Shown here: in pieces, positions 16,146-46,363 of the stretch | Layout: every line of letters starts with the position of its first letter | Position numbering within the stretch: the stretch's first letter is position 1 | Source: a virus | DNA: 64,000 bases | Strand: one strand, 5' to 3' | Virus record (IMG/VR): IMGVR_UViG_3300044824_000082 | Location: 4,652-68,651 of that record | Notes under the pieces: model-generated | What the model was told of the DNA's origin: nothing | Databases searched by the model: none | Seen by the model: the letters and a program-made list of their open reading frames with translations, nothing else | Made by a program: the position numbers and the translations under genes

Positions 16146-18404
16146 ATGGCGGACGTGCAAGTGAGGCCGTTTACGTTAGCTAAAGTGATGCCGGACCAAG
16201 TTCCAGAGGTAGCGCCGGCGCCGCCCGGACTGTTTGAGCGAGTGATGAAGGCGATTCGGCGAGAACCGATGGACAGGCCCATAGATAGGCCGTACAGCGT
16301 GGACCCTATCCCGCTGGAAACGTACATTGCAATGGCGGGCAATTTGGAAAAGACGCCCGTAACCGAGTTCAGTCTCAAGTTCTTGCGGGACATGACGTAC
16401 AACAGCGACTTGCTCGCGCTGATTGTCCGTACCAAGACGAATGAAACGTTCCGTGGCGGGGTAAGTATCGAGGAGCGGTTCAAGAGCAAGTGTAAGACGT
16501 GCGGGCGGGAGTTCGAGGAAGAGAAGATTATTTGTCCGTTCGACCAAGGCGAGATGGCGCACCCCGATTACAACCAGTGGAAGATTCTGAACGCTTTCCT
16601 GAAGATTATGAACCGATGGGACGAGTCGGTGATGGCGGTGATGCGGGAGGTGGACACCGATGTTCACGTTTGTGATAACGGTTGGGTTTTCTTGGACAGG
16701 GATTACTGGTTTGGGGACGATGGGAAGATTACGAATGAGGAGGTAAAAAGCATCATCCGTTTCGACCCGAACATGATGCGGCTTATCATGAGTCGGTACG
16801 GAATGGGGACGAGCGAGACAGGCGCGTATTCGTATTTCTGTGTCGAACACCGAAACAAGGTTACGGAGTTCGCCGAGAAGAGTGAGGAGCATAAGTGCCA
16901 GTGCGGCAAGGTGATGATACCGGCCTGGTATTGTGCGCTTACCCGCGCAGAGCGGTACTACTATGGGCCCCGTGAGATATACCACGTCAAGATGTACTCG
17001 AACGCGCAGGGCTACGGCGTCCCGCCTCTCATGTCTTGTTACATGAAGGTGAACGCCTTGCTCCGCATGGACAAGTTCATTTTGGATGCGTATTCGCTTC
17101 AGCGGGCTCCGCAGGAACTACTGATTTTGCGGGGTAAGCGGGACAGTATCCACCACGCGTGGGAATGGTTGATGCAGAAGGCTCGCGAGAACCCGAACAT
17201 GGTGTACCCGTTGGTTATTGAGGGCGATGGCGGGGGTGACAGCGGCAGGCGGATAGTCGAGCACGAAACGTTCTCTCTCAAGCCGATAGAGTGGGAATGG
17301 AGCCAGATGCGGGACGAATACCGCCGCGTGGTTAGTGCGGTGTACGGTGTCCAGCCTTTGTTTTCGGGCGGTGCAGGTGACACGGGCGGGGGGCTGGCGA
17401 ATGAGGGACTGCAAATCGCTGTCACGGCGTTGGCTATCAAGCAGGAACAGCACACTTGGAACACGTTTTTGGAGTTCGTCAGCGACCAGTTGGGATGCCC
17501 GGATTACAAGTTCAAGCTGGAACCGAACGAGCAGGAAGACGAGCTTCGGGACTTGGAAGTGGAGCGGAAGCGTATCGACATGGCCGTGATTATGGCCCAG
17601 TTGGGTTACGATGTGGAACTGCACGAAGACGCGAAGGGACGGATGGAGTTCAAGTTCAAGGAGAAGCCACCTGCGCCAGTTGGGGCGCCGGGGCCCGAGG
17701 GACTGATTCCGCAGGAAGACGTTTCCACGGACACGGCGAAGGACTACTTAGAGTCCGATTCGATGAGTCCTGAGCAGAACCGTGACGAACGGTGGGACGA
17801 GGAACGGCGAAGGGCGGCAGGCCCGGCACAGGTAGGCGAGGCGGTAAGTGTCGGCATGGGGTTGGGCGAACTCCAATTTGACGATGATATGGAAGTAGTG
17901 AAGGTGTGCGAGGCGTGCGGTGGAGAGGCAGAGGCGCCGGACTTGTCTAATATGGAAAAGAGCTATTCGCAAGACAGGGAGCGCACCATGCGGATGATAG
18001 CAGGCGGGGACCCGCATTGTGATGTAGAAGGGTGCGGGGCGCCGCAAAATCGGTTGATGATTGCGCACCACAAGCCGGACGAGTTTGCGGGGTACGCTTC
18101 GCGTTCGGGCGGGGCGAACTACGCGCGGTGGATGGTGTACGTGCGGGAGCATCCCAGCAATTATCACCTGCTTTGTCCCGAGCATCACTCGCAGGCAGAC
18201 CAGCGAAAGGTGCCCGGCCCGGAAGTGCACCGAAAGGACGTTCAGTTGTTGAGGGCGTTGGCAGGGGCGGAGAAGGCAAACTATAAGAGCAAGCCGATTA
18301 AGAGCAAGAAGAACCCGCGCGGGGACGAGAACATCCCGATAGAGACGGTTCAGGGTTCCCAGAACATGAACATCCTCGAAGCCCGCCCGGGAAGCCCCGG
18401 TTAA
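16146..18404 (+). CDS. portal protein with Zn-ribbon inserts and a C-terminal HNH-like extension
   Basis: REIYHVKMYS..GYGVPP, RRVVSAVYGVQP..G and FKFK are portal-like; located before a MuF-like gene. Confidence 0.75.
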   Translation: MADVQVRPFTLAKVMPDQVPEVAPAPPGLFERVMKAIRREPMDRPIDRPYSVDPIPLETYIAMAGNLEKTPVTEFSLKFLRDMTYNSDLLALIVRTKTNETFRGGVSIEERFKSKCKTCGREFEEEKIICPFDQGEMAHPDYNQWKILNAFLKIMNRWDESVMAVMREVDTDVHVCDNGWVFLDRDYWFGDDGKITNEEVKSIIRFDPNMMRLIMSRYGMGTSETGAYSYFCVEHRNKVTEFAEKSEEHKCQCGKVMIPAWYCALTRAERYYYGPREIYHVKMYSNAQGYGVPPLMSCYMKVNALLRMDKFILDAYSLQRAPQELLILRGKRDSIHHAWEWLMQKARENPNMVYPLVIEGDGGGDSGRRIVEHETFSLKPIEWEWSQMRDEYRRVVSAVYGVQPLFSGGAGDTGGGLANEGLQIAVTALAIKQEQHTWNTFLEFVSDQLGCPDYKFKLEPNEQEDELRDLEVERKRIDMAVIMAQLGYDVELHEDAKGRMEFKFKEKPPAPVGAPGPEGLIPQEDVSTDTAKDYLESDSMSPEQNRDERWDEERRRAAGPAQVGEAVSVGMGLGELQFDDDMEVVKVCEACGGEAEAPDLSNMEKSYSQDRERTMRMIAGGDPHCDVEGCGAPQNRLMIAHHKPDEFAGYASRSGGANYARWMVYVREHPSNYHLLCPEHHSQADQRKVPGPEVHRKDVQLLRALAGAEKANYKSKPIKSKKNPRGDENIPIETVQGSQNMNILEARPGSPG

Positions 18405-32382: not shown

Positions 32383-32415
32383 GGTTTAAGTAGGCAGGGA
32401 GAGGTAAAGGGTTTG

Positions 32416-35277
32416 ATGACGGACACTTACCGAGATTTGGTCATAACAGACGATAAAAATCGTTTGGTTGCAGGGTTCGCCAACGTTGCTGTTCTGGACA
32501 GGCAAGGGGACATCGTTCCGACAGACGCAATGGCGAAGGCCATGCTGGAATACATGAAGCGGGGCGGGGTGGTTCTTTTGGGCCACGCCAACAAGCCGGT
32601 GGGCAAGGTAGTCCAGTGGAGCATCCAGAAGCCCGAAGGTAGCGATGCCGATGGAATCCATATCATTGCAGCCATTGACACGGGCACCGAGCCCGGAGAC
32701 GAAGCGTGGAAGAAGCTCGGGAACAAGACGATTACGGGGTTTAGTATTGGTGGTTCGGCCAAGGAAAGCGAGAACGTGCGAGACAAGGCGGCGGTAGGTG
32801 GAGTCGCGCGGGAGCTTAAGGGCGTGGAACTCCATGAGATTAGTCTGGTGGAGATTCCCGCAAATCAGTTGGCAACGGTGTCGGACATCAGCGTGGCGAA
32901 GAGTTGTGATAACGGGACGTGTAAGATGGAGAAGGAAGTTCATCGTGGCCCATTTGCTGCGAAGGAAGAGGCTGACAAAACGGCCCAGAAGTTGAAGCAG
33001 GAAGGCTGGGCAGTTTATCGTATTGTTCAGGACGCGGATGGATGGTACATTGATTTCGGTTCTAAAGAGAACCCCGCGAACGAAACCGGGCGGGAGGAAA
33101 TGCATCCCAAGACAAAACAGCCAGTTTTGATGGCGCAGAAGACTCTTGAAGACGTGAAGGCGATGGGGTTGGATTGGGAGTCTTCGAAGGAAGAGGCGGA
33201 AAAGGCGGCGCAGGAAATGAAGGCGGAAGGGTTCAAGGTTTACGAAATCGTTCCCGATGGGGACGAGTGGCGGATTGACTACGGGCGGGAGGAGAATCCA
33301 GCGCGTAAGACGGTAGATGAAAAGACAAAGTATCCAGACCCATACATTCCCGGGCAAACGATTGATTCGGCGGAGATTCATCGGAGGGCCGAGGAGCTTA
33401 AGCGGCGTGGGGAAGAGAAGGCCGAGGGAGCCCCCGAAGACCCCACGGTGAAGGCCGAAGGTCCGATAGCGTTGGAGCAAGACCCGAACTACGACCAGAC
33501 GAAGTACGGGGTTCAGTCGATGGGGAAGGACGCCGTGGAAAAGGGCGGCAACGAGCAGGTTCGGCGTAAGGTTGGATTCGAGATTGCGGGGGCGAGAGTT
33601 CGTTCGGTGTCCCCAGACGGTTCGCGTGGGACTTGGCACCGCATGACGGACAGCGAGCGGGGCTTGAATCGTTTGTATGGTGCGGGAGAGTTGTCAGCGG
33701 CAACGAACATCCCGAGCGGGTTCCAGCCGGCGCAACCGATTCCGAAGAAGTCAGTGGAGGAGAAGGATGCGGTATCCACGGGCGAAGCGGGGGTAGAGAA
33801 CGCGCGGTTCAGTCCTCCGCAGAAGCCCGAAGACATTGAGAAGCCGTTCAAGTCGCGGGCGCAACAGCGGTGGATGTTCTGGGCGGACCCGAAGATGGCG
33901 CGAGAGTGGGCGCACAAGACGCCGAACATTCGAAGTTTGCCTGAGCGTGCCAGCAAGAAGGATGTCATTGATGGAGACGAGGCACGTCCAGTCGGGGCAG
34001 AGGACGGAAGCAATCTGGTTCCCGAGGCGGATAACAAGAGCCATCCTGTAACGGGCGAAGAGGCGTTCACGGAGAGGGCGGAAGGTCCGCAGGGTGACAA
34101 GTACGGTGAGTTCGGTGAGAAGAGCGTCGAGAAGCTCAACCCCACAGACCAAGAGGCCGGCGATGGGACGTGTACGTGGTGCAAGGTGAAGACGAAGGTT
34201 CACGAAGACCCGCGTTCGGGCAAGCCGATTTGCGAGGCGTGCGCGGCGGAGTTACCGAACAAGGCGATGCAGCCCGAGCAGTTGAAGCCGGGCTATCAGG
34301 AGGGAAAGGAGTCTTCGACAGGCAAGCCCGTGATGCACGAACAGAAGGGCGAGTTCGAGTGCGAGACGTGCGGGAAGAAGCCGATGTCGTTCGAGGAGTG
34401 CGTGGCGCACGAGAAGACGTGCAAGGAGATGCCTCCCGACAGTTGTGACGAGTGCGGCAAGAAGGGAACGACTCGGCGCGGGTTGTGCGAGCAGTGCGAG
34501 GCCGACGCGGTGAACGAGGCGCGAGCCAAGAAGGGGCTCACGTTTAACAAGGCGGGCAAGTGTCGTGGGTGCGGATGTGCCGGGCACGAACTCGTTGACG
34601 GGCGGTATTGTCAGTCGTGCTACGAAGAGTTGCAGTATTTGATGGCCGAAGCCCGTGAAGAGTTCGGGCAGAAGAAGGCATTGCAACAGCGGACAGGGGT
34701 GCCGAGCACGATTCAGGTGGCGGGTGGAACGGCCACGTACGTTGGGACAGAGGTAGAAGACAAGAACGGGCGATGGGACGACAGCTACAAGACGAGCGAT
34801 GGGTACTGGGTGATTCATCACGGCTCGGTGCACGACGTCTATCAGAAGTCGGTAGAGAAGGAGCCGCGTGATGCCACGGACGATGCGAATGTCGGGCCGA
34901 CTGGATTGGCGGCGGAGCCAGCGTTACAGTCGTCTTTGGATGCGAAGAAGGAGGGTTCAGGGACTCCTGCGAAGGGTTCGGGTGGTAGAACTATCCCAGC
35001 TTCGGGCGGGCGAACGGTGAAGCCAAGCGGCGGGCGCACCACGAAGTTGTTGATGGCGTTGGCGGGCGTGCGGAAAGAAGAGAAGTCGGTGAGCAAGGAG
35101 TTGCGGTTGGTTCGGGCGTTGGCGGGAGTGGAGCTTGAGAAGTCCGGTGCGATGTGTAAGCGGTGCGGTTCAAGTCGTCGGCGGCTGTACAAGCGGAAGA
35201 AGGGAATGCTCTGCGGAAAGTGTGTCAAGGCCATCCGAACCCGTGCGTTAAAGCAACTGGCGGGTATCAAGAAGTAG
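32416..35277 (+). CDS. HK97-type prohead protease with a long modular C-terminal extension
   Basis: VAGFANVAVLDRQGDIV, LLGH..PVGK, ITGFSIGG, LHEISLVEIPAN. Confidence 0.88.
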   Translation: MTDTYRDLVITDDKNRLVAGFANVAVLDRQGDIVPTDAMAKAMLEYMKRGGVVLLGHANKPVGKVVQWSIQKPEGSDADGIHIIAAIDTGTEPGDEAWKKLGNKTITGFSIGGSAKESENVRDKAAVGGVARELKGVELHEISLVEIPANQLATVSDISVAKSCDNGTCKMEKEVHRGPFAAKEEADKTAQKLKQEGWAVYRIVQDADGWYIDFGSKENPANETGREEMHPKTKQPVLMAQKTLEDVKAMGLDWESSKEEAEKAAQEMKAEGFKVYEIVPDGDEWRIDYGREENPARKTVDEKTKYPDPYIPGQTIDSAEIHRRAEELKRRGEEKAEGAPEDPTVKAEGPIALEQDPNYDQTKYGVQSMGKDAVEKGGNEQVRRKVGFEIAGARVRSVSPDGSRGTWHRMTDSERGLNRLYGAGELSAATNIPSGFQPAQPIPKKSVEEKDAVSTGEAGVENARFSPPQKPEDIEKPFKSRAQQRWMFWADPKMAREWAHKTPNIRSLPERASKKDVIDGDEARPVGAEDGSNLVPEADNKSHPVTGEEAFTERAEGPQGDKYGEFGEKSVEKLNPTDQEAGDGTCTWCKVKTKVHEDPRSGKPICEACAAELPNKAMQPEQLKPGYQEGKESSTGKPVMHEQKGEFECETCGKKPMSFEECVAHEKTCKEMPPDSCDECGKKGTTRRGLCEQCEADAVNEARAKKGLTFNKAGKCRGCGCAGHELVDGRYCQSCYEELQYLMAEAREEFGQKKALQQRTGVPSTIQVAGGTATYVGTEVEDKNGRWDDSYKTSDGYWVIHHGSVHDVYQKSVEKEPRDATDDANVGPTGLAAEPALQSSLDAKKEGSGTPAKGSGGRTIPASGGRTVKPSGGRTTKLLMALAGVRKEEKSVSKELRLVRALAGVELEKSGAMCKRCGSSRRRLYKRKKGMLCGKCVKAIRTRALKQLAGIKK

Positions 35278-35315: not shown

Positions 35316-35696
35316 GTGGAATCGAAATTGGTTCAGCGCGGTAGAAAGGGTTCATCGAAATTCCGAGATTTCCGGTTGACTCAAAGGCGCAGAGGAGTGA
35401 GAAAGAGTCAGCGTGAGTATTTCTTGAAGTCGAAGTACGGTTTGACTATTGCGGCATGGGAAGCTCTTTTCGAAGGGCAGGGAAGGGCCTGTGCAATTTG
35501 TTGTTCAAAATCTGCACGCGGTAAAGCGGGTGTGGGTTGGTGTACGGACCATGACCACGAAACAGGTGAGGTGCGTGGAATCATCTGTCAACCTTGTAAT
35601 TTGTTGGTTGGTTGGATTGAGAAAAGTGCCTGTCCCGAAGAAATTGCGGTAAGGGTGATGAAATATTTAAATCAGGCAAGGTTGCGGAAGGTATAA
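35316..35696 (+). CDS. endonuclease VII-like HNH nuclease
   Basis: KYGLT..QGRACAIC..DHDHETGEVRGIICQPCN. Confidence 0.9.
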   Translation: MESKLVQRGRKGSSKFRDFRLTQRRRGVRKSQREYFLKSKYGLTIAAWEALFEGQGRACAICCSKSARGKAGVGWCTDHDHETGEVRGIICQPCNLLVGWIEKSACPEEIAVRVMKYLNQARLRKV

Positions 35697-35722: not shown

Positions 35723-36310
35723 ATGCCGAAGGCAGTTCGTAAGGACCCGGACCCGGCCGTTGTGCCAAAGCCGGTGGACGAGGAAGAGAAGAGTGAGCCT
35801 ATTAAGCCGCTCGCAGAGGAAGAGAAAGAGAACAAGGAGCCTCCGGGGCCACAGGAGCCAGTCATGGAGAAGGAACCGGACCCGGCGCCGAAGGAAGACG
35901 AGGAGTTCGAGGATGCGTTGAAGATGCTCGGTGAGCGCTTCGACAGGATGGAGAAGGCCATCACCTCGCTCGGTGAGGTTCTGAAAGCGAACTACACAAG
36001 CAAGCCGAAGCCGATGGACGCGGATTACCCGACGCCCCCGTTGGATGGCCCGAAGAGCGATGGGCTACAGGCTCCGAAGATTGACCAGGAAATCAACCCG
36101 GCGGCGAAGCCGTTCGGAAAGGGCAAGCCAGCGAGCGAGGAAGTTCGCAAGGCGGCACTTGCGGGAGCCGCGGACGGAAGCCGTGAGACGAAGCCACCGG
36201 TGGCGACAACGGAGGATTTGAGGGCAATGAGGTTGGCAATTTTGAAGGGCGAAACGAGCATTGCGAAAGAGAACGCCAAACTTGCACAGCGCAAGTATGG
36301 AGGTAACTAA
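35723..36310 (+). CDS. putative capsid scaffolding protein
   Basis: acidic/Pro-rich with coiled coil; lies between protease and capsid gene; TATAAATA promoter. Confidence 0.6.
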   Translation: MPKAVRKDPDPAVVPKPVDEEEKSEPIKPLAEEEKENKEPPGPQEPVMEKEPDPAPKEDEEFEDALKMLGERFDRMEKAITSLGEVLKANYTSKPKPMDADYPTPPLDGPKSDGLQAPKIDQEINPAAKPFGKGKPASEEVRKAALAGAADGSRETKPPVATTEDLRAMRLAILKGETSIAKENAKLAQRKYGGN

Positions 36311-36311
36311 G

Positions 36312-37550
36312 ATGGCGCGGCAGTTGACCTTCCAAGACTTGATGCAGATGTACGACAGCGGCGGACTCGCCCCTATCATGGGAGCCGAGGACTCGTTCTT
36401 CGCTAAGAGCATCTCGGGAGCTATCAGTGCGACGGGCGGTGGAACGGGTGTGTGGAACCCTATCTACGGTGCGCAGTGCTGGTACCAGTTGAACACAGAA
36501 GCGAACCTCTTTGGGTTGCTTCCGAAGTTGACTTGGGACAAGAGCGGATTCCGTACGATTGCCTCGTTTACGCGTGCGGCTACCTTGATGGCGATTACGG
36601 AAACGGGCAGCTTGCCTACCCCGACAACGCCGACGATTAACACCGTCAAGTTGGTTCCGAAGATTGCGGTGAACACGTTTGCAACGAGCCAGATTGTTGA
36701 GCAGTTGGCGAAGTTGTCGCAGGACGACATTTTCGCGAACCTCGACACGATTCGGTTGTACTACGCGACTGAGCACGTCAAGCTGTTGAACCAGATGTTG
36801 AACAGCCTTGTCGTGGGAACCACGATTGCGACGAGCAACCAGTACAGCACCACGATTCCGACGTTCGAGAGCTTGGACCGTATCGTGTGCAGCTACACGG
36901 AGGGTAACACCGTAACGGGACTTGCGACAACGAACGCGACGTTGCAGGCTATCATCAACCCGTACAACGGTGCAGTCAACCGTTGCGCTGGTGGAACGAC
37001 GGGATGGGACTCGCAGGTTATCAGCCCTTCGGGGACGATTAACGTTGCGGCGAGTTTGACGGACAGTGCGATTCGAAGCATTATCCAGAACACTCGTACG
37101 GCGGGCGGGTACAACAACGTGTTCCTGACGGGATACAATACCTATGCCGAAATGCAGGGATTGTACCTAAGCAACTGGCGCACAGTGACTTGGGGCGAGT
37201 TGCGTGTTGACACGGGCTTGAACGGGATTAAGGCGGCAGAGGGGCTGGACGTGGGAATGAAGGTTGCCTCAGCCTACGGTATCCCGGTAATCAGCGCGGT
37301 TGATACGGCACAGTCGCAGGGAACGGGAGTCGGAGTGGCGAATATCTACTTGCTCGACACCACGGACACGGAAGGCTACGGTGACGCGCGGTACGGAGTT
37401 CAGGTGTTGAACCCGACGAACTACCTTGAGACGAGCGCTCGGGACTTCATCCTGTTGGGTGCCCTTGCCTACGAGGCGATGTACATGACGATAGGCGAAC
37501 AGGCGTGTCGGTTCTTCGCTGCGCAGGGTAAGATTCGGGACATTAATTGA
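36312..37550 (+). CDS. major capsid protein (HK97 fold)
   Basis: position and size (412 aa); WNPIYGAQCWYQLNTEANLFGLLPK..WDKSGFR and QGKIRD C-terminus resemble archaeal tailed-virus capsids; strong codon bias. Confidence 0.85.
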   Translation: MARQLTFQDLMQMYDSGGLAPIMGAEDSFFAKSISGAISATGGGTGVWNPIYGAQCWYQLNTEANLFGLLPKLTWDKSGFRTIASFTRAATLMAITETGSLPTPTTPTINTVKLVPKIAVNTFATSQIVEQLAKLSQDDIFANLDTIRLYYATEHVKLLNQMLNSLVVGTTIATSNQYSTTIPTFESLDRIVCSYTEGNTVTGLATTNATLQAIINPYNGAVNRCAGGTTGWDSQVISPSGTINVAASLTDSAIRSIIQNTRTAGGYNNVFLTGYNTYAEMQGLYLSNWRTVTWGELRVDTGLNGIKAAEGLDVGMKVASAYGIPVISAVDTAQSQGTGVGVANIYLLDTTDTEGYGDARYGVQVLNPTNYLETSARDFILLGALAYEAMYMTIGEQACRFFAAQGKIRDIN

Positions 37551-39263: not shown

Positions 39264-39857
39264 ATGCCAAAGGGAGTTTACGTTCGTTCACCAGAATACT
39301 TGGCAGCTTTGAATGAAGCATTTCGCAAGCGCAGCTTGAATCCAGAGTGGCAAGAACAGCATAGGAAACAAGTAGACGCATTGAACGCCTCGCCAGAACA
39401 TCGCGAACATCTTAGAAGGATTCACGCCGACCCGGCCATACGAGAGAAGATGGGTGGGCGTGGGAAGGTGGGAGGGGCTATTGTTGGACGGAGAAACGTT
39501 GAGACGGGATTTTTGGACAAGATTCGGCCTCAAGCTGTAGTAGCGTCCAGAAGGGGATTGAAACCCACAGAGCCAGAAAAGATTGTCAGAGACAAGCTGG
39601 GCGCATCGTGGCGGTACACGGGTGATAACTCGTTCGCTATCGTTACCAAGCGGCATACAAGGTATCCAGATTTTGTCAACGAAAAGGAGCGTAAGTGTAT
39701 TGAAGTCTTTGGTAATTACTGGCACAGTAGAAAGTGGTTTCCAGAACGTGAAGCACCAGAGGACAAGATAGCCGAATACGCGGAAGTTGGTTGGCAGTGC
39801 GAAGTCGTTTGGGAGAAGGACGTTAAGAAATGGCTTCCAGCAAACTGTTCGGAATGA
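39264..39857 (+). CDS. PD-(D/E)xK (Vsr-like) homing-type endonuclease
   Basis: MPKGVYVRSPE; PTEPE..YPDF..IEVFGNYWH..VVWE; paralogue of 22899. Confidence 0.8.
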   Translation: MPKGVYVRSPEYLAALNEAFRKRSLNPEWQEQHRKQVDALNASPEHREHLRRIHADPAIREKMGGRGKVGGAIVGRRNVETGFLDKIRPQAVVASRRGLKPTEPEKIVRDKLGASWRYTGDNSFAIVTKRHTRYPDFVNEKERKCIEVFGNYWHSRKWFPEREAPEDKIAEYAEVGWQCEVVWEKDVKKWLPANCSE

Positions 39858-39860
39858 ACC

Positions 39861-40874
39861 ATGCAAACAGACGAGTTGAGAAAGATAGTAGAGGTGCTGC
39901 GCGGTATGGAAGGAGACGGCACTACGTTAGTGTCGTACCTTGTAATGCCGAAGCGTTCCATAGCCGACGCCCGTGCCCGATTGGCGCGGGAAGTCGTAGA
40001 AGCCGAGAACATCAAGCTTCACAGCACACGACACGCTGTCGTAGCCTCGCTAACCAAGGCCCTGACAGCGGCCCGAGGCATGTCAGAAACCCCCGAGAAC
40101 GGTGTCGCGCTTTACGCCTCACCCACGGATACATGGCTCATCGAGCCACCCGAACCGATTCAGGCGAACGTGTATCGGTGCGGGAGCGAGTTCGTCTTGG
40201 AGCCGTTGGAGGCGATGCTGGCCTCGAAGGAGGTGTTCGCGTTGATAGTGATAGACAGGCAGGAGGCCACGTTGGGTTGGTTGCGGGGCAGTGCCATCGA
40301 AGAGGTGGCCTATTTCGAGTCCCGCGTGATGGGCAAGCACGATGCGGGCGGGCAATCGCAGCACCGCTTCGAGCGGCAAATAGAGCATCAGGCACACGAG
40401 TTCTTTGTGAAGGTGGCGGAGGCGGCAACGCAGGCTTTCGTGGACAAGAAGCTCACAGCCGTGGCAGTGGGAGGCCCGGGAGCCACGAAGGAGTTCTTTG
40501 TGAAGGAAGGGTATCTGGACTACAGACTGCAAGAAAAGGTGCTCCCTGCGTTTAATGTGGGGTACACGAACGAGGCGGGTTTGCGGGAACTGGCGCTAAA
40601 AGTAGAGGCACATCTGCCTGCGTTGGTGAGCGCCAAAGAGCGGGTGCTCCTGCAAGGGTTCTTTGCGGCGATTCGGGACGGCCGTGCAGCGTACGGCAAG
40701 GAACAGATTGCCCGGGCGATTGCGGAAGGGCGGGTAGAGAGTTTGATTCTGTCGCACGGGGTTCCGGTGCCAGCGGGATACAGTGGAGAGGTTCAGCGAG
40801 TCGGAGAGGCCGGGGACGAGGCGGCGGCGTTCAAGAAAGGCTTCGGTGGAATCGGCGCTTTGTTACGGTACTAA
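39861..40874 (+). CDS. prf1: archaeal-type class-1 peptide chain release factor (aRF1/eRF1)
   Basis: GTT (GTS loop), NIKL, PENG, YRCGSEF (YxCxxxF), KHDAGGQSQHRFER (GGQ), GGPG, FGGIGALLRY. Confidence 0.95.
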   Translation: MQTDELRKIVEVLRGMEGDGTTLVSYLVMPKRSIADARARLAREVVEAENIKLHSTRHAVVASLTKALTAARGMSETPENGVALYASPTDTWLIEPPEPIQANVYRCGSEFVLEPLEAMLASKEVFALIVIDRQEATLGWLRGSAIEEVAYFESRVMGKHDAGGQSQHRFERQIEHQAHEFFVKVAEAATQAFVDKKLTAVAVGGPGATKEFFVKEGYLDYRLQEKVLPAFNVGYTNEAGLRELALKVEAHLPALVSAKERVLLQGFFAAIRDGRAAYGKEQIARAIAEGRVESLILSHGVPVPAGYSGEVQRVGEAGDEAAAFKKGFGGIGALLRY

Positions 40875-40912
40875 GCAAAAGCCTTTTAAACTCCGTGGTC
40901 AATCCACCGGCG

Positions 40913-41677
40913 ATGAAGGTGTATCACGCACTTATCGCGTACATGCCGGCGCGGCACGAAACGGCGGAGAACGTAACGAGGGAAGCGGTAGCGGGAGCCG
41001 TAGCGTTGGGCTATCCGTTGGTGATTTGGCACGCGGGAAACAAGCCGACGCCCGGGCCACTGTGTTCTGAAATTCATCCGATTCTGGACCCCGGCGAGGG
41101 GCACGGTGAGATAGTGGACTACGAGAACGGAAATCTGAGCGATAACTGGTTGAAGGCGTGGGACGACTTGTTCTTGGCGGGCGCGGATTGGGTGCTGTGG
41201 ACGAGCAACGACGTCGTGTGGACGAAGGAAGCGCGGGCGGACTTGGACAAGATTGCCGAGGAAGGAAACCACATGACGGTGTACGAGCAGGCGCCGTTCA
41301 TTTGGAGCATGTTCCACAGAGAGTTGTGGGAGAAGGTGCGGGAGCACTGGGACGTGGTATGGGAGCCCAGTATGAACGACGACTCGAATTTCCTGGCAAC
41401 GGTGTTGTGGCAGGGTGGAGCCATCGACTACAATCCGTTGCGGCACCAAGTAAGGCACATCGGGCGGTTGGTGGAAACAACGTACTGTTCCACGGGCAAG
41501 CCCAAGCAGGAAAAGGACGCAGCCATCTATTCGAACAATACGAAGTTCAAGCAACGCTGGGGAATTTCGCCGTATGAGTGGCCTGTTCCCGGCCGCGTAG
41601 AAAGGCGCGAACCGCTGGACGTTCCGCCTCCGCCGCCCCCGGCCAAGCGGGTAAGTCATTTGGTGGGGCAACCATAA
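40913..41677 (+). CDS. putative GT-A fold glycosyltransferase
   Basis: NLSDNW..ADWVLWTSNDVVW, MFHRELWEKV, DDSNF, KFKQRWG resemble GT2 motifs. Confidence 0.5.
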   Translation: MKVYHALIAYMPARHETAENVTREAVAGAVALGYPLVIWHAGNKPTPGPLCSEIHPILDPGEGHGEIVDYENGNLSDNWLKAWDDLFLAGADWVLWTSNDVVWTKEARADLDKIAEEGNHMTVYEQAPFIWSMFHRELWEKVREHWDVVWEPSMNDDSNFLATVLWQGGAIDYNPLRHQVRHIGRLVETTYCSTGKPKQEKDAAIYSNNTKFKQRWGISPYEWPVPGRVERREPLDVPPPPPPAKRVSHLVGQP

Positions 41678-41710
41678 ACTTAAAATAGGCTCGAATACTT
41701 AGGGGAAGCG

Positions 41711-41929
41711 ATGAGTCATTGGGATGCCAAGCGTGACGTGATTGTACTCGATACGAGTTGCTTGGCGGATGGGTGCGAAAAGCCCATTGTGCACACGGCG
41801 GACACGCAGCCGGATTTGTGGTGCCAGGACCACTTGAATCACTTTCGAGAGAAGGCAAAGTGGTTGTCGGGGGCACGGGAGTACTACGAGAAGATGAAGC
41901 CGAAAGAGACGATGAAGGACTTGCGATGA
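41711..41929 (+). CDS. small Zn-binding protein
   Basis: CLADGC..WCQDH; CTTAAAATA box upstream. Confidence 0.55.
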   Translation: MSHWDAKRDVIVLDTSCLADGCEKPIVHTADTQPDLWCQDHLNHFREKAKWLSGAREYYEKMKPKETMKDLR

Positions 41930-42133
41930 TGGCGGCGAGAGGGGGCTCACCATGAAACGATGTAATAGTCGTTTAGGTGAGTCGAATGAGCGGAGCGAAC
42001 AGGCATCGGCGGGTTTGGTGCGAAGAGAAGCGGCGACTGGTTAAGTACCGAGTAGGAAAGCCACACGGAAAGGATGGGAAAATCAATGTCCCGAACTCCT
42101 GTCGGCGGGGGCACAAGACAAAGCAAGTGTAAA

Positions 42134-42216
42134 GGCCCGGTGGGTCAGTCAGGAACGCCGCCGCGCTCAAGACGCGGTGTAGTAGTACAGCGCCGGTTCA
42201 AATCCGGCCCGGGCCA
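42134..42216 (+). tRNA. tRNA-Leu(CAA)
   Basis: cloverleaf; CCGCG-CT CAA GA-CGCGG; long variable arm; GTTCAAATC. Confidence 0.9.
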
Positions 42217-42330
42217 CTGTCGTATGGTATTGAACAGTGGGGTGCCCGAGCCAGTGTGCCAGCAGAGTGCATATCGTGAGTGGTATGACAGGGATAATGC
42301 AAGGATGGAGCGGAGGTATGGGCGATATAC

Positions 42331-42406
42331 GGGCCTGTAGTGGCAAATTTGGAAGAACGCCTGTTTCGCAAACAGGGGGTTCCGGGTTCGAATCCCGGCG
42401 GGTCCA
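42331..42406 (+). tRNA. tRNA-Ala(CGC)
   Basis: CCTGT-TT CGC AA-ACAGG; G3.U70. Confidence 0.93.
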
Positions 42407-42550
42407 TTCATTGGTGAAGGAAATGGGCGAAATCGTGCGGAATTGGAATCCAGAAAACAAGTCGTACGATGAGATGGCTCCGTGGGAGAAGGTGGAGAAC
42501 AACGTTTGGGCGGCTCGGTATGAACGGTTGTGTTTGAGGTTGATAGATGC

Positions 42551-42623
42551 GGGCTCGTAGTGGCAATGGAAGAACACTTCGTTGGCATCGAGGAGGTTGC
42601 GAGTTCGATTCTCGCCGGGTCCA
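42551..42623 (+). tRNA. tRNA-Ala(GGC)
   Basis: CTTCG-TT GGC AT-CGAGG; G3.U70. Confidence 0.92.
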
Positions 42624-42624
42624 T

Positions 42625-42697
42625 GACAGGGAAGCGCTCCGGGATGTGTTCGGGGTTCATACCCCCGAGGTTGGAGGTTCGACTCCTCCCTCTGTCA
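42625..42697 (+). tRNA. tRNA-Met(CAT), initiator-like anticodon stem
   Basis: CGGGG-TT CAT AC-CCCCG with consecutive G-C pairs; A8/U14. Confidence 0.85.
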
Positions 42698-42775
42698 TTT
42701 CATGGTTCACCCGCGATGAAGACGCCCCGATGTACACGGGTGCGGTGCGTGACTTTGTGGAACGGGTGGGCACAT

Positions 42776-42849
42776 GCTCCATTGGGGTAAATTGGGAAGC
42801 CTCGCAGGTTCTCGCCCTGTGGATGTGGGTTCGAATCCCGCATGGAGCA
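42776..42849 (+). tRNA. tRNA-Glu(CTC)
   Basis: GCAGG-TT CTC GC-CCTGT; acceptor GCTCCAT/ATGGAGC. Confidence 0.92.
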
Positions 42850-42853
42850 CCTT

Positions 42854-42926
42854 GCCCGCGCAGTCCGTACGGAACGGATTCTGCCCTGTCACGGCGGAGG
42901 AGTGGGTTCAATTCCCACCGTGGGCG
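42854..42926 (+). tRNA. tRNA-Asp(GTC)
   Basis: CTGCC-CT GTC AC-GGCGG; C8/G14; G73. Confidence 0.9.
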
Positions 42927-42931
42927 TCCGT

Positions 42932-43006
42932 GGGTTCGTGGCGCAAATAGGATAGCGCAAGGGCCTCTTAAGCCCGAGGTTGTGGGTTCAAGTCCCACCG
43001 AGCCCG
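42932..43006 (+). tRNA. tRNA-Lys(CTT)
   Basis: AGGGC-CT CTT AA-GCCCG. Confidence 0.92.
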
Positions 43007-43008
43007 TT

Positions 43009-43083
43009 GGGCTTGTGACTCAGCTTGGACACAGTGCCGCCCCGCGAAGGCGGAAGTCGAGGGTTCAAATCCCTCCAAGCCCG
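43009..43083 (+). tRNA. tRNA-Arg(GCG), C33
   Basis: CCGCC-CC GCG AA-GGCGG. Confidence 0.88.
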
Positions 43084-43084
43084 T

Positions 43085-43158
43085 GCGCTCGTAGCTTAAA
43101 CGGAGAGAGTGCCCGCCTCCTAAGCGGGGCGATACGAGTTCGATTCTCGTCGAGCGCG
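43085..43158 (+). tRNA. tRNA-Arg(CCT)
   Basis: CCCGC-CT CCT AA-GCGGG. Confidence 0.92.
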
Positions 43159-43159
43159 T

Positions 43160-43236
43160 GCACCTGTCGCCTAACTCGGATATGGCGCCACGCTTCGAAC
43201 GTGGAACGATTGCGGGTTCGAATCCCGTCAGGTGCG
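43160..43236 (+). tRNA. tRNA-Arg(TCG)
   Basis: CCACG-CT TCG AA-CGTGG. Confidence 0.92.
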
Positions 43237-43241
43237 TGTAT

Positions 43242-43323
43242 GGCGGAGTGGCTCAGTGTTGACGGCGCGGGCCTTAGAAGTCCGTACGAGGAAACAACGC
43301 AGGTTCAAATCCTGCCTCCGCTA
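43242..43323 (+). tRNA. tRNA-Leu(TAG)
   Basis: CGGGC-CT TAG AA-GTCCG; extended variable region. Confidence 0.85.
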
Positions 43324-43324
43324 C

Positions 43325-43396
43325 AGCCCGATAGTGTAGTGGCGCGCATGGGAACCCTACAAGTTCTCGGTGGGAGTTCAATTCTCTCTCGGGCTA
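43325..43396 (+). tRNA. tRNA-Val(TAC), C33
   Basis: GGAAC-CC TAC AA-GTTCT; acceptor AGCCCGA/TCGGGCT. Confidence 0.82.
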
Positions 43397-43398
43397 TT

Positions 43399-43471
43399 CC
43401 TCACGTAGTTCAATCGGTAGAACACCGGCCCGTAGAGCCGGGTGTTGCTGGTTCAAATCCGGCCGTGGGGA
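43399..43471 (+). tRNA. tRNA-Tyr(GTA), C33
   Basis: CCGGC-CC GTA GA-GCCGG; C1-G72 and short variable loop (archaeal/eukaryal Tyr identity). Confidence 0.9.
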
Positions 43472-43472
43472 C

Positions 43473-43543
43473 GCGTCCATCAGTCAGTGGTAGGCTCCCG
43501 CATCGCCAGTGCGGTGACTCGGGTTCGATTCCCGGTGGGCGCA
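43473..43543 (+). tRNA. tRNA-Gly(GCC), C33
   Basis: CCGCA-TC GCC AG-TGCGG; GCG acceptor start; A73. Confidence 0.9.
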
Positions 43544-43544
43544 T

Positions 43545-43712
43545 ATGAACGAGGAAGAGAGAACGAAATTAGAAGAGGAGTTCCCGATTGTAGACTGTAA
43601 AGGGTGCGGGCATTGTACATGTGCCCATGAACACAGTACAGGAAAATGTCATCTGGTTTGGTGGGACATGAAAGACATGTTAAGGTGTGACTGTCAGGAA
43701 TTCGTTCTATGA
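43545..43712 (+). CDS. small Zn-finger protein inside the tRNA array (not in ORF track)
   Basis: MNEEERTKLEEEFPIVDCKGCGHCTCAHEH..KC..CDCQEFVL; same module as 1584. Confidence 0.55.
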   Translation: MNEEERTKLEEEFPIVDCKGCGHCTCAHEHSTGKCHLVWWDMKDMLRCDCQEFVL

Positions 43713-43715
43713 AGC

Positions 43716-43787
43716 GCGTCCAAGGTGTTGACAGTGACATATCGGGCCTCCAACCCGAAGTACGGGGCGCACGTCCCCGTGGGCGCA
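43716..43787 (+). tRNA. tRNA-Gly(TCC), C33, non-canonical T-loop
   Basis: TCGGG-CC TCC AA-CCCGA; T-arm CGGGG-CGCACGT-CCCCG. Confidence 0.8.
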
Positions 43788-43790
43788 TAT

Positions 43791-43865
43791 GCCACCGTAG
43801 CGAAGTCCAGACATCGCGCCCGCCTCGTAAGCGGGAGTTCGCCGGAGCGAAGCCGGCCGGTGGCT
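43791..43865 (+). tRNA. tRNA-Thr(CGT), non-canonical T-loop
   Basis: CCCGC-CT CGT AA-GCGGG; T-loop AGCGAAG; U73. Confidence 0.85.
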
Positions 43866-43869
43866 TTAT

Positions 43870-43955
43870 GGACGGGTGGCCCAATCAGGAAAGGCGTCCG
43901 CCTCGAAAGCGGATTCTCAGCGATGAGAGTGGGGGTTCAAATCCCCTCCCGTCCG
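43870..43955 (+). tRNA. tRNA-Ser(CGA)
   Basis: TCCGC-CT CGA AA-GCGGA; long variable arm; G73. Confidence 0.92.
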
Positions 43956-43958
43956 TTC

Positions 43959-44030
43959 GCCGGCTTAGCCTAACAGGAGGGCGCCACCCTGAAGAGGTGG
44001 AGATTGGCGGTGCAAGTCCGCCAGCCGGCA
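43959..44030 (+). tRNA. tRNA-Phe(GAA)
   Basis: CCACC-CT GAA GA-GGTGG; T-loop TGCAAGT. Confidence 0.88.
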
Positions 44031-44032
44031 TT

Positions 44033-44105
44033 GGGCGTGGAGCTAATCAGCAGAAGCGCGTGTCTGATACACACGAAGTAGGAGGGGCGGCACCTCCCGC
44101 GCCCA
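44033..44105 (+). tRNA. tRNA-Ile(GAT), non-canonical T-loop
   Basis: CGTGT-CT GAT AC-ACACG; T-loop GGCGGCA; G8. Confidence 0.82.
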
Positions 44106-44108
44106 TGT

Positions 44109-44180
44109 GCCGAGGTAGCTCAGTAGCAGAGCACTCGACTGTTAATCGAGTACGCGAAGGTGCAAGTCCTTCTCTCGGCG
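44109..44180 (+). tRNA. tRNA-Asn(GTT)
   Basis: CTCGA-CT GTT AA-TCGAG; T-loop TGCAAGT; G73. Confidence 0.9.
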
Positions 44181-44181
44181 T

Positions 44182-44267
44182 GGAGGGATGGCCCAGTTGG
44201 CTACGGCGCGGGTTTGCTAAGCCCGTTTCGCGGAAGCGATTCGCCGGTTCGAATCCGGCTCCCTCCG
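44182..44267 (+). tRNA. tRNA-Ser(GCT)
   Basis: CGGGT-TT GCT AA-GCCCG; long variable arm. Confidence 0.92.
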
Positions 44268-44268
44268 T

Positions 44269-44339
44269 GTCGTCCGGGCAGGACAGCCATGCGGGGGCCC
44301 GCAGAGCCTCAGAACCCGGTGCAACTCCGGGGGACGACT
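44269..44339 (+). tRNA. tRNA-Cys(GCA), C33
   Basis: GGGGC-CC GCA GA-GCCTC; U73; T-loop TGCAACT; G8. Confidence 0.82.
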
Positions 44340-44530
44340 TGTGCCCAAAGTGCGGACACGTTCATTCGTTCTTGTCAGGGAAGTGTAACACTGTCTTGGA
44401 TAGATGGTTTGAGTGTGGGTGTCAAGGATGACGACGGACACGATAGTGACGGTAGTGGTGATTGGGATTCTTGCGGCGTGGATTACGTTCGTGATTCGTT
44501 ACTGGTCTAAGTTCATGGAGTGGTTGGAAT

Positions 44531-44905
44531 ATGAAGCTCCCGATTAAGGAACACAAAAGCAAGCACCCTGCGAGTGATGTCAAGACGGCGTCACTGATGG
44601 CCTTCGTGGTGCGGCGGGGGAAGGTAGTGACGGTGGGTTACAATCGAAGGGTGTTTCCGAACGGAGAGGCGTTCTCCCAGCACGCGGAGGAAGCGGCGCT
44701 CAAGAAGGCGGGAAGTCGGGCGAAGGGAGCCACGCTGTACGTGCTTCGGTTCAAGAAGGACGGTAGCCGTGGGATGGCGCGTCCCTGTGGACGGTGCCAC
44801 GACACGTTGAATCGGGCGGGAATCGTGCGGGTGTTCTTTTCGCTGGACAACGTGGACAGGTGGGGAAAGTTGATATGGCAGAACGCACAATGGATAGAGG
44901 TATAG
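44531..44905 (+). CDS. Zn-dependent cytidine/dCMP/tRNA deaminase-superfamily protein inside the tRNA array
   Basis: GYN, HAEEAAL (HxE), ATLYV, ARPCGRC (PCxxC); stop codon overlaps tRNA-Gln. Confidence 0.9.
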   Translation: MKLPIKEHKSKHPASDVKTASLMAFVVRRGKVVTVGYNRRVFPNGEAFSQHAEEAALKKAGSRAKGATLYVLRFKKDGSRGMARPCGRCHDTLNRAGIVRVFFSLDNVDRWGKLIWQNAQWIEV

Positions 44906-44977
44906 CGCCGTGGAGTAGCTGGACAAGCCCACCCGGCTCTGACCCGGGAGACAGAGGTTCGAATCCTCTCGGCGCTA
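44904..44977 (+). tRNA. tRNA-Gln(CTG)
   Basis: CCCGG-CT CTG AC-CCGGG; A1-U72 (archaeal Gln identity). Confidence 0.92.
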
Positions 44978-44984
44978 TCCTTAC

Positions 44985-45059
44985 GGGCGTGTCGTCTAAT
45001 CTGGTTCAGGATAGCTGGCCCCAGACCAGCAGATGTCGGTTCAAATCCGGCCTCGCCCA
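44985..45059 (+). tRNA. tRNA-Trp(CCA), C33
   Basis: GCTGG-CC CCA GA-CCAGC; one acceptor mismatch. Confidence 0.82.
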
Positions 45060-45061
45060 TC

Positions 45062-45136
45062 GGGCGTGTCGCCTATTGGGATGGCACCTGTCTTATAAGC
45101 TGGACAAAGGAGCGAGTTCGATTCTCGTCACGCCCA
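45062..45136 (+). tRNA. tRNA-Ile(TAT)
   Basis: CCTGT-CT TAT AA-GCTGG (one U.U mismatch); acceptor GGGCGTG as in Ile(GAT); 8-nt variable region. Confidence 0.75.
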
Positions 45137-45140
45137 TTGT

Positions 45141-45213
45141 GGGGCTGTGGTGTAACTTGGAAGCATCCGGCGCTCGGAACGCCGAGGTACAGGTTCAAAT
45201 CCTGACAGTCCCA
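45141..45213 (+). tRNA. tRNA-Pro(CGG)
   Basis: CGGCG-CT CGG AA-CGCCG; GGGGC acceptor start. Confidence 0.9.
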
Positions 45214-45547
45214 TTATGAGCGAACTGAAGTGGAGGACGTGTCAGAAGTGCGGCGAGGAACACGTCTTTTCCAGTGAATTGAGATGCGTGAGTTGTCGAG
45301 CGGCGCCCTTGCTCAAGCGGCTCAAGGAACTCGGGTGGGAGAACGGTGTGATTTACGTGGACGGGCTTCCGGTTGGGAAGAAGGCTTAAATAGAAGTGGA
45401 GATGTGATGAGGAGAATGAGTGTGTGTCCGGTTTGCGCGAGGCCAAGTCAAGAGAAAGTTCTGAGCGAGCCTGCAATGGTGCAGCTTTCTTGTGGTCATG
45501 TAGTGCACGAAGGAAAGGTTAAGTAGTCGTGCGGTGATTTGAAAAGC

Positions 45548-46363
45548 ATGGTGGGGAAGTTTAGGCTCGGCAAGAAGGTTCCACGACACGACCCTCGGAC
45601 GTTAAGGTTTGCGAAGTACACGGCGGCACTGGCGGCGCCTCCGGCGCAGGAATATTGGTACAAGGCGGTGCCTTCGTTTGGGATGGACGGTAACGACACG
45701 TACGGCGATTGTACCATTGCGGGCGCGGCGCACCTGATGGAGAATTGGAGTTACAATGAGACGCCACCGAGCCCGGTGGTTCTCTCAACCAACGATTGTG
45801 TGAACGATTACTTGGCATTGACGGGCGGGGCCGACAATGGGTTGGACCTCTTGACAGTGTTGCAAGCGTGGCAAGGCAACGGACTGGCATACGGGACGAG
45901 TGGTAGTCAGTCGTGCTTGCAGAAGTTCTTTCACTGTAAGGTGAGTGGGACGGGGGACGACAAGATTATGGCATACGCGGCGCTCAAGGCGGGCAACGCG
46001 CTTGAGGCACAGCAAGCGGTATGGTTGTTTGGTGGGGCGTACATCGGGTTGGAGTTGCCCGACTTTGCGGTGACGGGAGACATGCTGGCAACCCCGTGGG
46101 TGGTTCCTCCGGGCGGGGCGGTAGGTAACGCGGCGCCGAACCCGAACAATGGGCATTGTGTTTGTATCGTGGGATACGATGCGGCTCAGTTGTATGTAGC
46201 GACTTGGGGAACCGTGAAGACAATGGGATACGATTTCCTGTTGGCGTACAGCGATGAGGGCTACGGGATAATCTCGCCTGACTGGATGGGGACGAGCAAT
46301 ATGGCTCCTTCGGGATTTGATTTGTCGCAGTTGCAAGCGGACCTTGCGGTGGTGACGGGGTAA
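45548..46363 (+). CDS. papain-like (clan CA) cysteine peptidase
   Basis: GNDTYGDCTIAGAAH, NGHCVCIVGYD, VATWG; AAAGGTTAAGTAG promoter. Confidence 0.8.
   Translation: MVGKFRLGKKVPRHDPRTLRFAKYTAALAAPPAQEYWYKAVPSFGMDGNDTYGDCTIAGAAHLMENWSYNETPPSPVVLSTNDCVNDYLALTGGADNGLDLLTVLQAWQGNGLAYGTSGSQSCLQKFFHCKVSGTGDDKIMAYAALKAGNALEAQQAVWLFGGAYIGLELPDFAVTGDMLATPWVVPPGGAVGNAAPNPNNGHCVCIVGYDAAQLYVATWGTVKTMGYDFLLAYSDEGYGIISPDWMGTSNMAPSGFDLSQLQADLAVVTG

Follow-up and report, generated by a model that had tools for sequence, protein, structure and literature searches.

The window considered here, that is the whole stretch of 64,000 nucleotides analysed, carries at positions 39861..40874 (+ strand) a single uninterrupted frame, from ATG to TAA, encoding a protein of 337 amino acids that belongs to the aRF1/eRF1 family of class-1 release factors. 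A tRNA array follows (42134..45214, + strand), its first tRNA starting 1,260 bases after the aRF1 stop codon, in agreement with the distance of about 1.3 kb given in the initial annotation. On the upstream side, an ORF of 197 aa (39264..39857, + strand) stops 3 bases ahead of the aRF1 ATG, a spacing which suggests that both genes are probably co-transcribed; its product shows a weak match, below cut-off, to Vsr-like endonucleases (PF03852, 17.7 bits). Between aRF1 and the tRNAs lies an ORF of 260 aa (40895..41677, + strand), for which a weak lead, unrelated to translation, points to a family-2 glycosyltransferase. When this ORF is compared with DNA of the metagenome run X2 (positions 40996-41071), 6 differences are observed, all at the third position of codons in the + frame; the ORF is a genuine + strand gene. 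Directly after the tRNA array, a gene of 274 aa (45539..46363, + strand) corresponds to phrog_19005, with a papain-like protease as a weak lead, again unrelated to translation. A scan for promoters and terminators around aRF1, of bacterial type, returned counts at or below the shuffle level.

The window corresponds to bases 4652-68651 of IMGVR_UViG_3300044824_000082, a linear virus record of IMG/VR that is 68,651 bases long and the completeness of which is estimated at 47% by CheckV. Its G+C content is 55%, and 56 of the 76 non-overlapping ORFs are found on the + strand, where the GC skew is steadily positive. This strand encodes a portal protein (16146..18404; phrog_18178, E 1.2e-41), a protein of 954 aa whose N-terminal part is a prohead serine protease domain (32413..35277; PF04586, phrog_9427), a major head protein (36261..37550; phrog_24667, E 1.7e-24), a tail tube protein (47748-48668; PF18906) and a tape-measure-like protein (49319-50542), the tail tube and tape-measure matches among PHROGs being phrog_58 and phrog_305. 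With a portal, an HK97-type head, a prohead protease and tail genes, the record is a fragment of the genome of a tailed virus of the Caudoviricetes type, and the block formed by aRF1 and the tRNAs is positioned between the head and the tail gene modules. No terminase was found within the window, the record being about half complete. Pfam and PHROGs also identify archaeal-type replication genes in the window, namely a family B polymerase, the large subunit of primase and an ERCC4 nuclease. The relatives of this nuclease amount to 7 proteins, almost all carried by short contigs, and the major head protein is matched in 1 of 401 Thermoplasmata genomes (G366, 31% identity).

Near-identical DNA occurs in four peat metagenome runs, X1-X4, X1 being perhaps the run from which the record comes. 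The fraction of sampled words matched is 0.43 in X2, 0.16 in X3 and 0.15 in X4, all of which come from other studies. Pieces of the aRF1 gene are recovered in these three runs without any difference, over positions 40148-40854 in X2, 40115-40265 and 40305-40537 in X3, and 40121-40487 in X4. One X1 contig contains a joint linking 40376 to 43056; its short side measures just 29 letters, and the joint was therefore set aside as an assembly artefact or a foreign contig. Altogether, the data support the view that a complete aRF1 is carried by a large tailed virus whose hosts are archaea living in peat. The initial proposal that a tailed archaeal virus encodes a class-1 release factor thus holds, on the basis of the family model described below and of the portal, head and tail genes.

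The assignment to the aRF1/eRF1 family relies on motifs, on a family model and on the fold. The viral protein matches the NCBIfam model TIGR03676 (aRF1_eRF1) with 308.2 bits, above the cut-off of 234.7 (E 7.3e-92), the match extending over profile positions 3-313 of 403; in the genome-wide search with the same model it scores 295.2 bits, also above the cut-off. Pfam matches above cut-offs are obtained for eRF1_2 (119 bits, residues 126-252) and eRF1_3 (38 bits, residues 258-299), and PF03463 is found among the precomputed domain annotations. Together with the fold matches, these results delineate the three-domain organization of the family. The N domain (residues ~1-123) bears the three decoding motifs as well as E44: G20-T21-T22 (39918-39926, + strand), N50-I51-K52-L53 (40008-40019, + strand) and Y105-R-C-G-S-E-F111 (40173-40193, + strand). 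The M domain (residues ~124-252) bears the GGQ motif, G163-G164-Q165 (40347-40355, + strand). The C domain (residues 258-337) is short and does not contain the insert of profile positions ~314-355. All these motif positions were derived from the translation, which bears out the complete GTx, NIKL, YxCxxxF and GGQ motifs and the length of 337 aa first read from the sequence. When 54 aRF1 sequences are aligned, the viral protein retains every invariant column (Y105, C107, F111, G163-G164-Q165, S166, R169 and R172 in viral numbering), and also E44, N50, I51 and K52, which fall in nearly invariant columns.

The closest solved relative is the aRF1 of entry 4af1 (E 1.6e-50). Chain 3agk, which likewise has the NIKL motif, aligns with the viral protein up to its last residue, and the C domain can be aligned to 3vmf_B, a chain solved together with EF1-alpha. 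An AlphaFold model built on this alignment has a mean pLDDT of 89.8. With this model, Foldseek returns aRF1 4af1 at the top (E 8.9e-31, TM 0.77); the ribosome-bound, accommodated eRF1 of 5lzv is matched with a TM of 0.76 and the isolated N domain of eRF1, 2llx, with a target TM of 0.75.

Rescue having been one of the roles first suggested, it may be asked whether the viral protein is, instead of a release factor, a rescue factor resembling pelota or a hibernation factor resembling Balon. Balon and pelota chains do appear at lower Foldseek ranks, and the sequence gives weak scores with the pelota model (33.4 bits) and with the Rv2629/Balon-type models (24-36 bits). These scores stay far from the cut-offs, which are 177.65 bits for pelota (TIGR00111) and 320-480 bits for the Rv2629/Balon type; over the whole set of Balon/Rv2629 and baeRF/acVLRF1 NCBIfam models, 24-45 bits are obtained against cut-offs of 125-480. 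The Pfam hits to baeRF_family10 and acVLRF1 overlap the stronger eRF1_2 hit. Rescue factors lack GGQ, NIKL and YxCxxxF, all of which are found here in a protein that passes the aRF1 model. A rescue or hibernation function is thus highly improbable, and the family tests lead us to reject it in favour of a release factor.

Within the decoding motifs, two positions are unusual, the leucine in fourth place of NIKL and G108 in YRCGSEF. They were compared with 160 aRF1 loci retrieved by pattern scans, 80 from metagenomes and 80 from genomes, for all of which frame, motifs and tRNA count were recorded. Residue 108 is D in 147 of these loci. The NIKS-type motif reads NIKS in 133 cases, NIKD in 21, NVKS in 2, NIKA in 1 and NIKY in 1, with 2 loci giving no match; NIKL occurs in none of the 160. 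The motif is found, however, in 2 of the top 146 library representatives matching the clade profile described below, and in chain 3agk, which we take to be the Aeropyrum aRF1. The latter fits the earlier statement that NIKL occurs in crenarchaeal aRF1. NIKL is therefore compatible with the function of a cell's ordinary release factor.

The tRNA array contains 22 tRNAs recognized by both ARAGORN and Rfam, plus a 23rd, tRNA-Ala(CGC) (42331-42406, + strand), which corresponds to a weak Rfam hit at 42331-42409, was read by hand and has the G3:U70 alanine identity pair. This set covers 18 amino acids. Neither ARAGORN nor Rfam finds a CUA, UCA or UUA anticodon among the viral tRNAs, so that no suppressor is present. 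The 35 ORFs of at least 150 aa on the + strand end in TGA (18), TAA (11) and TAG (6), and under table 11 the longest open frames reach 1,794 codons. From the use of the three stops, the absence of a suppressor tRNA among the viral tRNAs and the long open frames, it follows that the virus uses the standard code, as the initial annotation had concluded. The viral tRNAs fit the codon choice of the virus. TTG represents 0.46 of the viral leucine codons, the corresponding values being 0.07 and 0.05 in G001 and G002, the related cells presented below, and ACG, GCG and CCG each represent 0.55-0.58 of the codons of their amino acid; for each of these four codons, the matching C34 tRNA is encoded in the array. 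When viral tRNAs are compared with those of cellular members of the clade, they are 72-92% alike, over short stretches only.

The nearest proteins, in a word-indexed search of 5.8 billion proteins, are P0002 (80% identity, partial) and P0003 (46%), followed by aRF1 of Thermoplasmata and Methanomassiliicoccales (36-45%). Two loci, L082 and L083, belong to the Thermoplasmata genomes G001 and G002 (3.6 and 3.0 Mb). The neighbours of L083 include genes for topoisomerase VI and succinyl-CoA ligase, those of L082 giant surface proteins. In both genomes, the sole aRF1 above cut-off is a short form, with 316-317 bits over profile positions 2-314 and 356-401; the remaining TIGR03676 hits, at 41-43 bits, are pelota-like. 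The same insert gap is observed in the otherwise canonical aRF1 (413-448 bits) of 5 further Thermoplasmata genomes. An aRF1 match is found in 379 of 401 sampled Thermoplasmata genomes, and among the 150 matches listed at least 7 are short forms end to end. The C domain had been described as trimmed. Positions ~314-355 are indeed missing, but the gap is common to cellular relatives, so that it does not result from a reduction in the virus.

Knowledge of these cells bears on a first possible role, in which the host would recode or read through a stop codon, for instance UAG as pyrrolysine in Thermoplasmata of the Methanomassiliicoccales type, and the viral factor would enforce termination. Such an override, already put forward from the sequence, would agree with TAG ending 6 of the 35 viral ORFs without any suppressor tRNA in the array, with the Thermoplasmata and Methanomassiliicoccales origin of the next-nearest cellular aRF1, and with the unusual NIKL and the glycine in fourth place of YxCxxxF. 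Several observations argue in the opposite direction. G001 and G002, the only cellular members of the clade, end their genes in TGA, TAG and TAA (23/24/8 of 55 ORFs in G001; 26/20/4 of 50 in G002), although they may not be the host. Searches of two sets of related genomes, one of 4 and one of 5, give no PylS_Cterm above cut-off, and none of 4 genomes has PylD, so that neither marker reaches its cut-off in nine related genomes, the virus possibly having another host. NIKL, in chain 3agk, belongs to a cell's ordinary and only aRF1. Finally, archaea have one omnipotent release factor, and a viral copy of the same kind would bring no new specificity unless altered. We therefore consider that the idea of a recoding or readthrough host, left without support by these comparisons, is improbable.

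To position the viral protein among archaeal aRF1, 277 sequences of 250-480 aa were thinned at 75% identity to 105 rows, and two further trees were built from 57 and 52 rows selected by hand, all with the quick search of IQ-TREE under LG+C20+F+G4. In the three trees, the window's protein falls inside a clade of short aRF1 carried by a long stem (0.55-0.82 changes per column; SH-aLRT 98, 100 and 95) and separate from the canonical aRF1 group of Thermoplasmata. In this clade, the window is grouped with P0002 (support 100) and the tRNA-rich metagenome contig L002 with P0107 (support 100). The other members are L009, a second tRNA-rich contig, the cellular L082 and L083 with P0015 and P0103, as well as P0003, P0110 and P0031. 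Eight clade members, 39-80% identical to the viral aRF1, share 46 invariant columns. The clade is small: a search of 1.84 billion representatives with its profile yields 745 proteins at E <= 1e-30, but scores decrease progressively from 524 to about 340 bits across some 12 short proteins, after which canonical forms mix in. The viral aRF1 belongs to a fast-evolving short clade in which tRNA-rich virus contigs and these Thermoplasmata cells are mixed.

A constraint tree uniting the five virus-linked rows is not rejected (p-AU 0.461), and the trees are therefore compatible with one or several captures and with transfer in either direction. Three other IMG/VR contigs with an aRF1, L179, L214 and L215, fall outside the window's clade in the free trees. 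L179 is a long branch paired with another long branch, L065. Joining L214/L215 to the window's clade is not rejected either and gives a slightly higher likelihood (p-AU 0.569), these long branches making the placement unsafe either way; for this reason, no claim is made of independent origins of viral aRF1 lineages.

Changes in the decoding pocket are shared within the short clade, with G in place of D in YxCxxxF and with NIKL, NIKN, NIKD or NVKS as the NIKS-type motif. It is tempting to imagine that the short clade is borne by viruses and circulates among large, tRNA-rich archaeal viruses of different G+C, that it replaced the essential release factor of the G001/G002 lineage and that the changes in its decoding pocket may alter stop reading. 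Taken together, these three propositions make a doubtful scenario. The members of such a lineage would be the window, L002, L009 and perhaps L214 and L215.

The viral aRF1 has no match by tblastn in 50,697 phage records, and no PHROG family matches it at E <= 1e-5. Fold comparison with BFVD gives 12 matches at E <= 0.001, 11 of which come from eukaryotic giant viruses, the best being Hyperionvirus (1.2e-24). In IMG/VR, scans with clade-specific patterns returned no relatives, such blanks reflecting the patterns, and broader patterns returned 1, then 3 loci in total beyond this record, in scans that were not exhaustive. The three are L179, L214 and L215, to which the metagenome contigs L002 and L009 are to be added.

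L002 and L009 are the only 2 of the 160 aRF1 loci that have tRNA arrays, the other 158 having 0-4 tRNAs. The L002 contig (10.2 kb) contains 13 tRNAs, with aRF1 at 1.46 kb from a tRNA. Two further proteins are common to L002 and the window. One is an HNH endonuclease; the other is the phrog_19005 protein, which in L002 (1725-2474) is 38% identical to the product of 45539..46363 and placed between aRF1 and the tRNAs. L002 also encodes an RNA ligase of the type involved in tRNA repair. L002 is a related virus. L009 (119.6 kb) contains 27 tRNAs within 21 kb, with aRF1 at 0.46 kb from a tRNA; rich in ORFans and with one PHROG hit, it is virus-like, its viral nature not being proven. In L179, a contig of 82 kb, an aRF1 of 328 aa is followed 0.29 kb further by a tRNA-Met. 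The distance between aRF1 and tRNA is thus at most 1.5 kb in the four viral or virus-like cases with a nearby tRNA (the window, L002, L009 and L179). This linkage is not universal, since L214 and L215 (78 and 77 kb, 40% G+C) have no tRNA within 4 kb of aRF1. In these two contigs, the aRF1 frame lacks its own start; a short frame beginning with ATG meets CTT TGA C in L214 and CTT TAG C in L215, and the protein is continued in the +1 frame, about ten codons in, giving an aRF1 of 339-340 codons.

The genes for aRF1 in archaeal tailed viruses are therefore rare but not unique, several examples being present, unremarked, in public data. The initial annotation had regarded such a gene as possibly new for an archaeal virus. 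This is sustained insofar as no aRF1 of an archaeal virus is described in the full-text literature searched, where supplementary gene tables could still include one; the window is not a singleton, though, as L179, L214, L215, L002 and L009 carry one too. In the passages of Liu et al., 2021 (PMC8651126) dealing with translation genes of archaeal tailed viruses, Trm112, L21e, tRNAs, lysyl-tRNA synthetase, the CCA-adding enzyme, RtcB and RNA ligases are named, and aRF1 is not among them.

Rarity, with 3 IMG/VR contigs beyond this record in the pattern scans, would be expected of a captured host gene kept without selected benefit and perhaps moved by homing-endonuclease-like neighbours. Candidates for such neighbours exist, since HNH, endonuclease VII, LAGLIDADG and weakly Vsr-like genes are found within 8 kb upstream of aRF1. 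Yet the aRF1 proteins of L002 and L009 are only 40-45% identical to that of the window, and the gene has stayed intact with all its motifs across the three. The neighbourhood is the same in the window and in L002, and the sequence is unchanged in contigs of the three other peat runs. A mere passenger would hardly be expected to behave in this way, and there is little chance that the gene is one.

Another possibility is that the viral copy substitutes for host aRF1 lost through viral shut-off or host defence, as was also suggested at the outset. A parallel would be the viral tRNAs that replace those cut by anticodon nucleases. The vicinity of a near-complete tRNA set and the RNA ligase of the tRNA-repair kind in L002 are in line with this idea, as is the strong divergence from cellular aRF1, expected of a protein escaping something that targets its host counterpart. 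This divergence is nevertheless common to cells having the short form as their only aRF1. Furthermore, Pfam and PHROGs reveal no defence system targeting aRF1 near the gene, and we know of no defence with this target. A substitute for a lost host factor is thus an unlikely, though conceivable, function.

The reading that we prefer, to which we attribute a probability of about 0.6, is that the product of the gene is a functional class-1 release factor of archaeal type, derived from or sharing its origin with an aRF1 of a Thermoplasmata lineage, and kept in a viral translation module. This module would consist of aRF1 and the 23 tRNAs, with an RNA ligase added in the relative L002. The N domain, with GTT, E44, NIKL and YRCGSEF, would read UAA, UAG and UGA on host ribosomes, and the GGQ loop of the M domain would free the peptide. 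By analogy with the short aRF1 of 3agk and 3vmf, the short C domain may bind aEF1-alpha-GTP of the host, ensuring delivery, and ABCE1, ensuring recycling. Termination and ribosome recycling would in this manner be kept from limiting late protein synthesis, independently of the host supply; a late role is suggested by the position of the gene between head and tail genes and by tRNAs tuned to the viral codons.

Some features run counter to a working factor. The long stem of the clade could reflect a relaxed or changed function. G108 in place of the usual D, the G+C gap between the virus and the cellular clade members (55% against 68-69% in G001/G002) and the two aRF1-bearing contigs L214 and L215 without nearby tRNAs are also to be counted on this side. 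To our knowledge, the benefit of an extra release factor to a virus has been established for no system.

The known range of virus-encoded release factors, so far eukaryotic giant viruses and large bacteriophages, now includes archaeal tailed viruses. The latter carry the termination step next to near-complete tRNA sets, and thereby offer a concrete case in which to ask why a virus would invest in termination. The diverged decoding pockets of these aRF1 also form a natural panel for studies of how stop codons are recognized. A further question raised is that of the possible passage of an essential translation factor between viruses and a lineage of Thermoplasmata.

Virus-encoded class-1 release factors are a known kind of protein, and the present case may be set beside the systems already described. 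Like the cellular archaeal aRF1 covered by TIGR03676, the viral protein belongs to the same family and has three domains with all decoding and catalytic motifs; it resembles in particular 3agk and the short aRF1 of G001/G002, to which it is 41% identical, by the missing insert of the C domain. It differs from cellular aRF1 in being encoded by a virus, beside a tRNA array, on a long branch, with NIKL where NIKS prevails and with G instead of the usual D in YxCxxxF. The aRF1 of the other archaeal tailed viruses, L214 and L215, are likewise short, with NIKS, YRCG and GGQ; however, their genes need a +1 shift, whereas that of the window is one uninterrupted frame, and their contigs, of lower G+C, have no adjacent tRNA array. 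Large or stop-recoded bacteriophages carry RF1/RF2, frequently in connection with stop-codon recoding and a suppressor tRNA. As in these phages, a prokaryotic virus holds here a class-1 release factor among translation genes, but RF1/RF2 have a bacterial fold, not homologous to aRF1, and the window has neither a recoded stop nor a suppressor tRNA. Finally, giant eukaryotic viruses such as Mimivirus/Megavirus and those of the Klosneuvirus type encode eRF1; the termination factors of giant viruses are the subject of Jeudy et al., 2012 (PMC3521657). In contrast to this eukaryotic-type factor of Nucleocytoviricota, the window encodes an archaeal-type factor, free of any frameshift in its gene, and the virus is a tailed one whose head is of the HK97 type. 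In both cases, a member of the eRF1/aRF1 superfamily is encoded by the virus, along with tRNAs and further genes for translation.

The aRF1 gene of the window virus (39861-40874, + strand) lies in a neighborhood where endonuclease and head genes are interspersed. Immediately 5′ of it, between positions 31894 and 39857, four endonuclease genes of the HNH, endonuclease VII, LAGLIDADG and weakly Vsr-like types (31894-32382, 35316-35696, 37637-38383, and 39264-39857) lie among head genes; this run of endonucleases may correspond to homing elements. On the 3′ side, two open reading frames of equal length overlap on opposite strands, at 40895-41677 (+) and 40886-41671 (−). All six differences from the near-identical DNA of a peat metagenome of another study (40996, 41002, 41014, 41032, 41038, and 41071) fall at third codon positions of the + frame, which shows that the + strand frame is the real gene.

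Further downstream, the tRNAs of the array (42134-45214) were compared with the open reading frames of the window. The NNG codons preferred by the virus (TTG, ACG, GCG, CCG, TCG, AAG, GAG, and CAG) are met by viral anticodons, and this preference contrasts sharply with that for NNC codons in two related Thermoplasmata genomes, G001 and G002. A 23rd tRNA, tRNA-Ala(CGC), was read by hand at 42331-42406 (+). It carries the G3:U70 identity pair, and its D arm is unusual; it was not called by ARAGORN, and Rfam returned only weak tRNA-like matches at this position. In both the window virus (45539-46363) and L002, a related tRNA-rich virus contig (1707-2474), a phrog_19005 gene has been retained beside the tRNA array. 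As a lead only, drawn from the Atlas, its product would be a papain-like protease.

Elsewhere in the window, a gene for a 6-pyruvoyl-tetrahydropterin synthase of the QueD type (23501-24127, +; E 1.4e-22) is present and hints at 7-deazaguanine base modification. Pfam and PHROG searches gave no match for the 1,794-aa open reading frame at 24171-29555 (+), nor, within the first 23 kb, for several others that are 527-954 aa long.

On the cellular side, the sole aRF1 of G001 and G002 (3.0-3.6 Mb, 68-69% G+C; loci L082 and L083) is a short, strongly diverged form. Its motifs are NVKS and YRCGSGF; on the TIGR03676 profile it scores 316-317 bits, versus 413-572 bits for relatives.

Finally, the viral aRF1 genes of two IMG/VR contigs, L214 (5964-6987) and L215 (5971-6996), contain a frame break. 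The main aRF1 frame has no start codon; an ATG frame of ten codons stops at CTT TGA C in L214 and at CTT TAG C in L215, beyond which the protein resumes in the +1 frame. These sites resemble the shift site of bacterial RF2.
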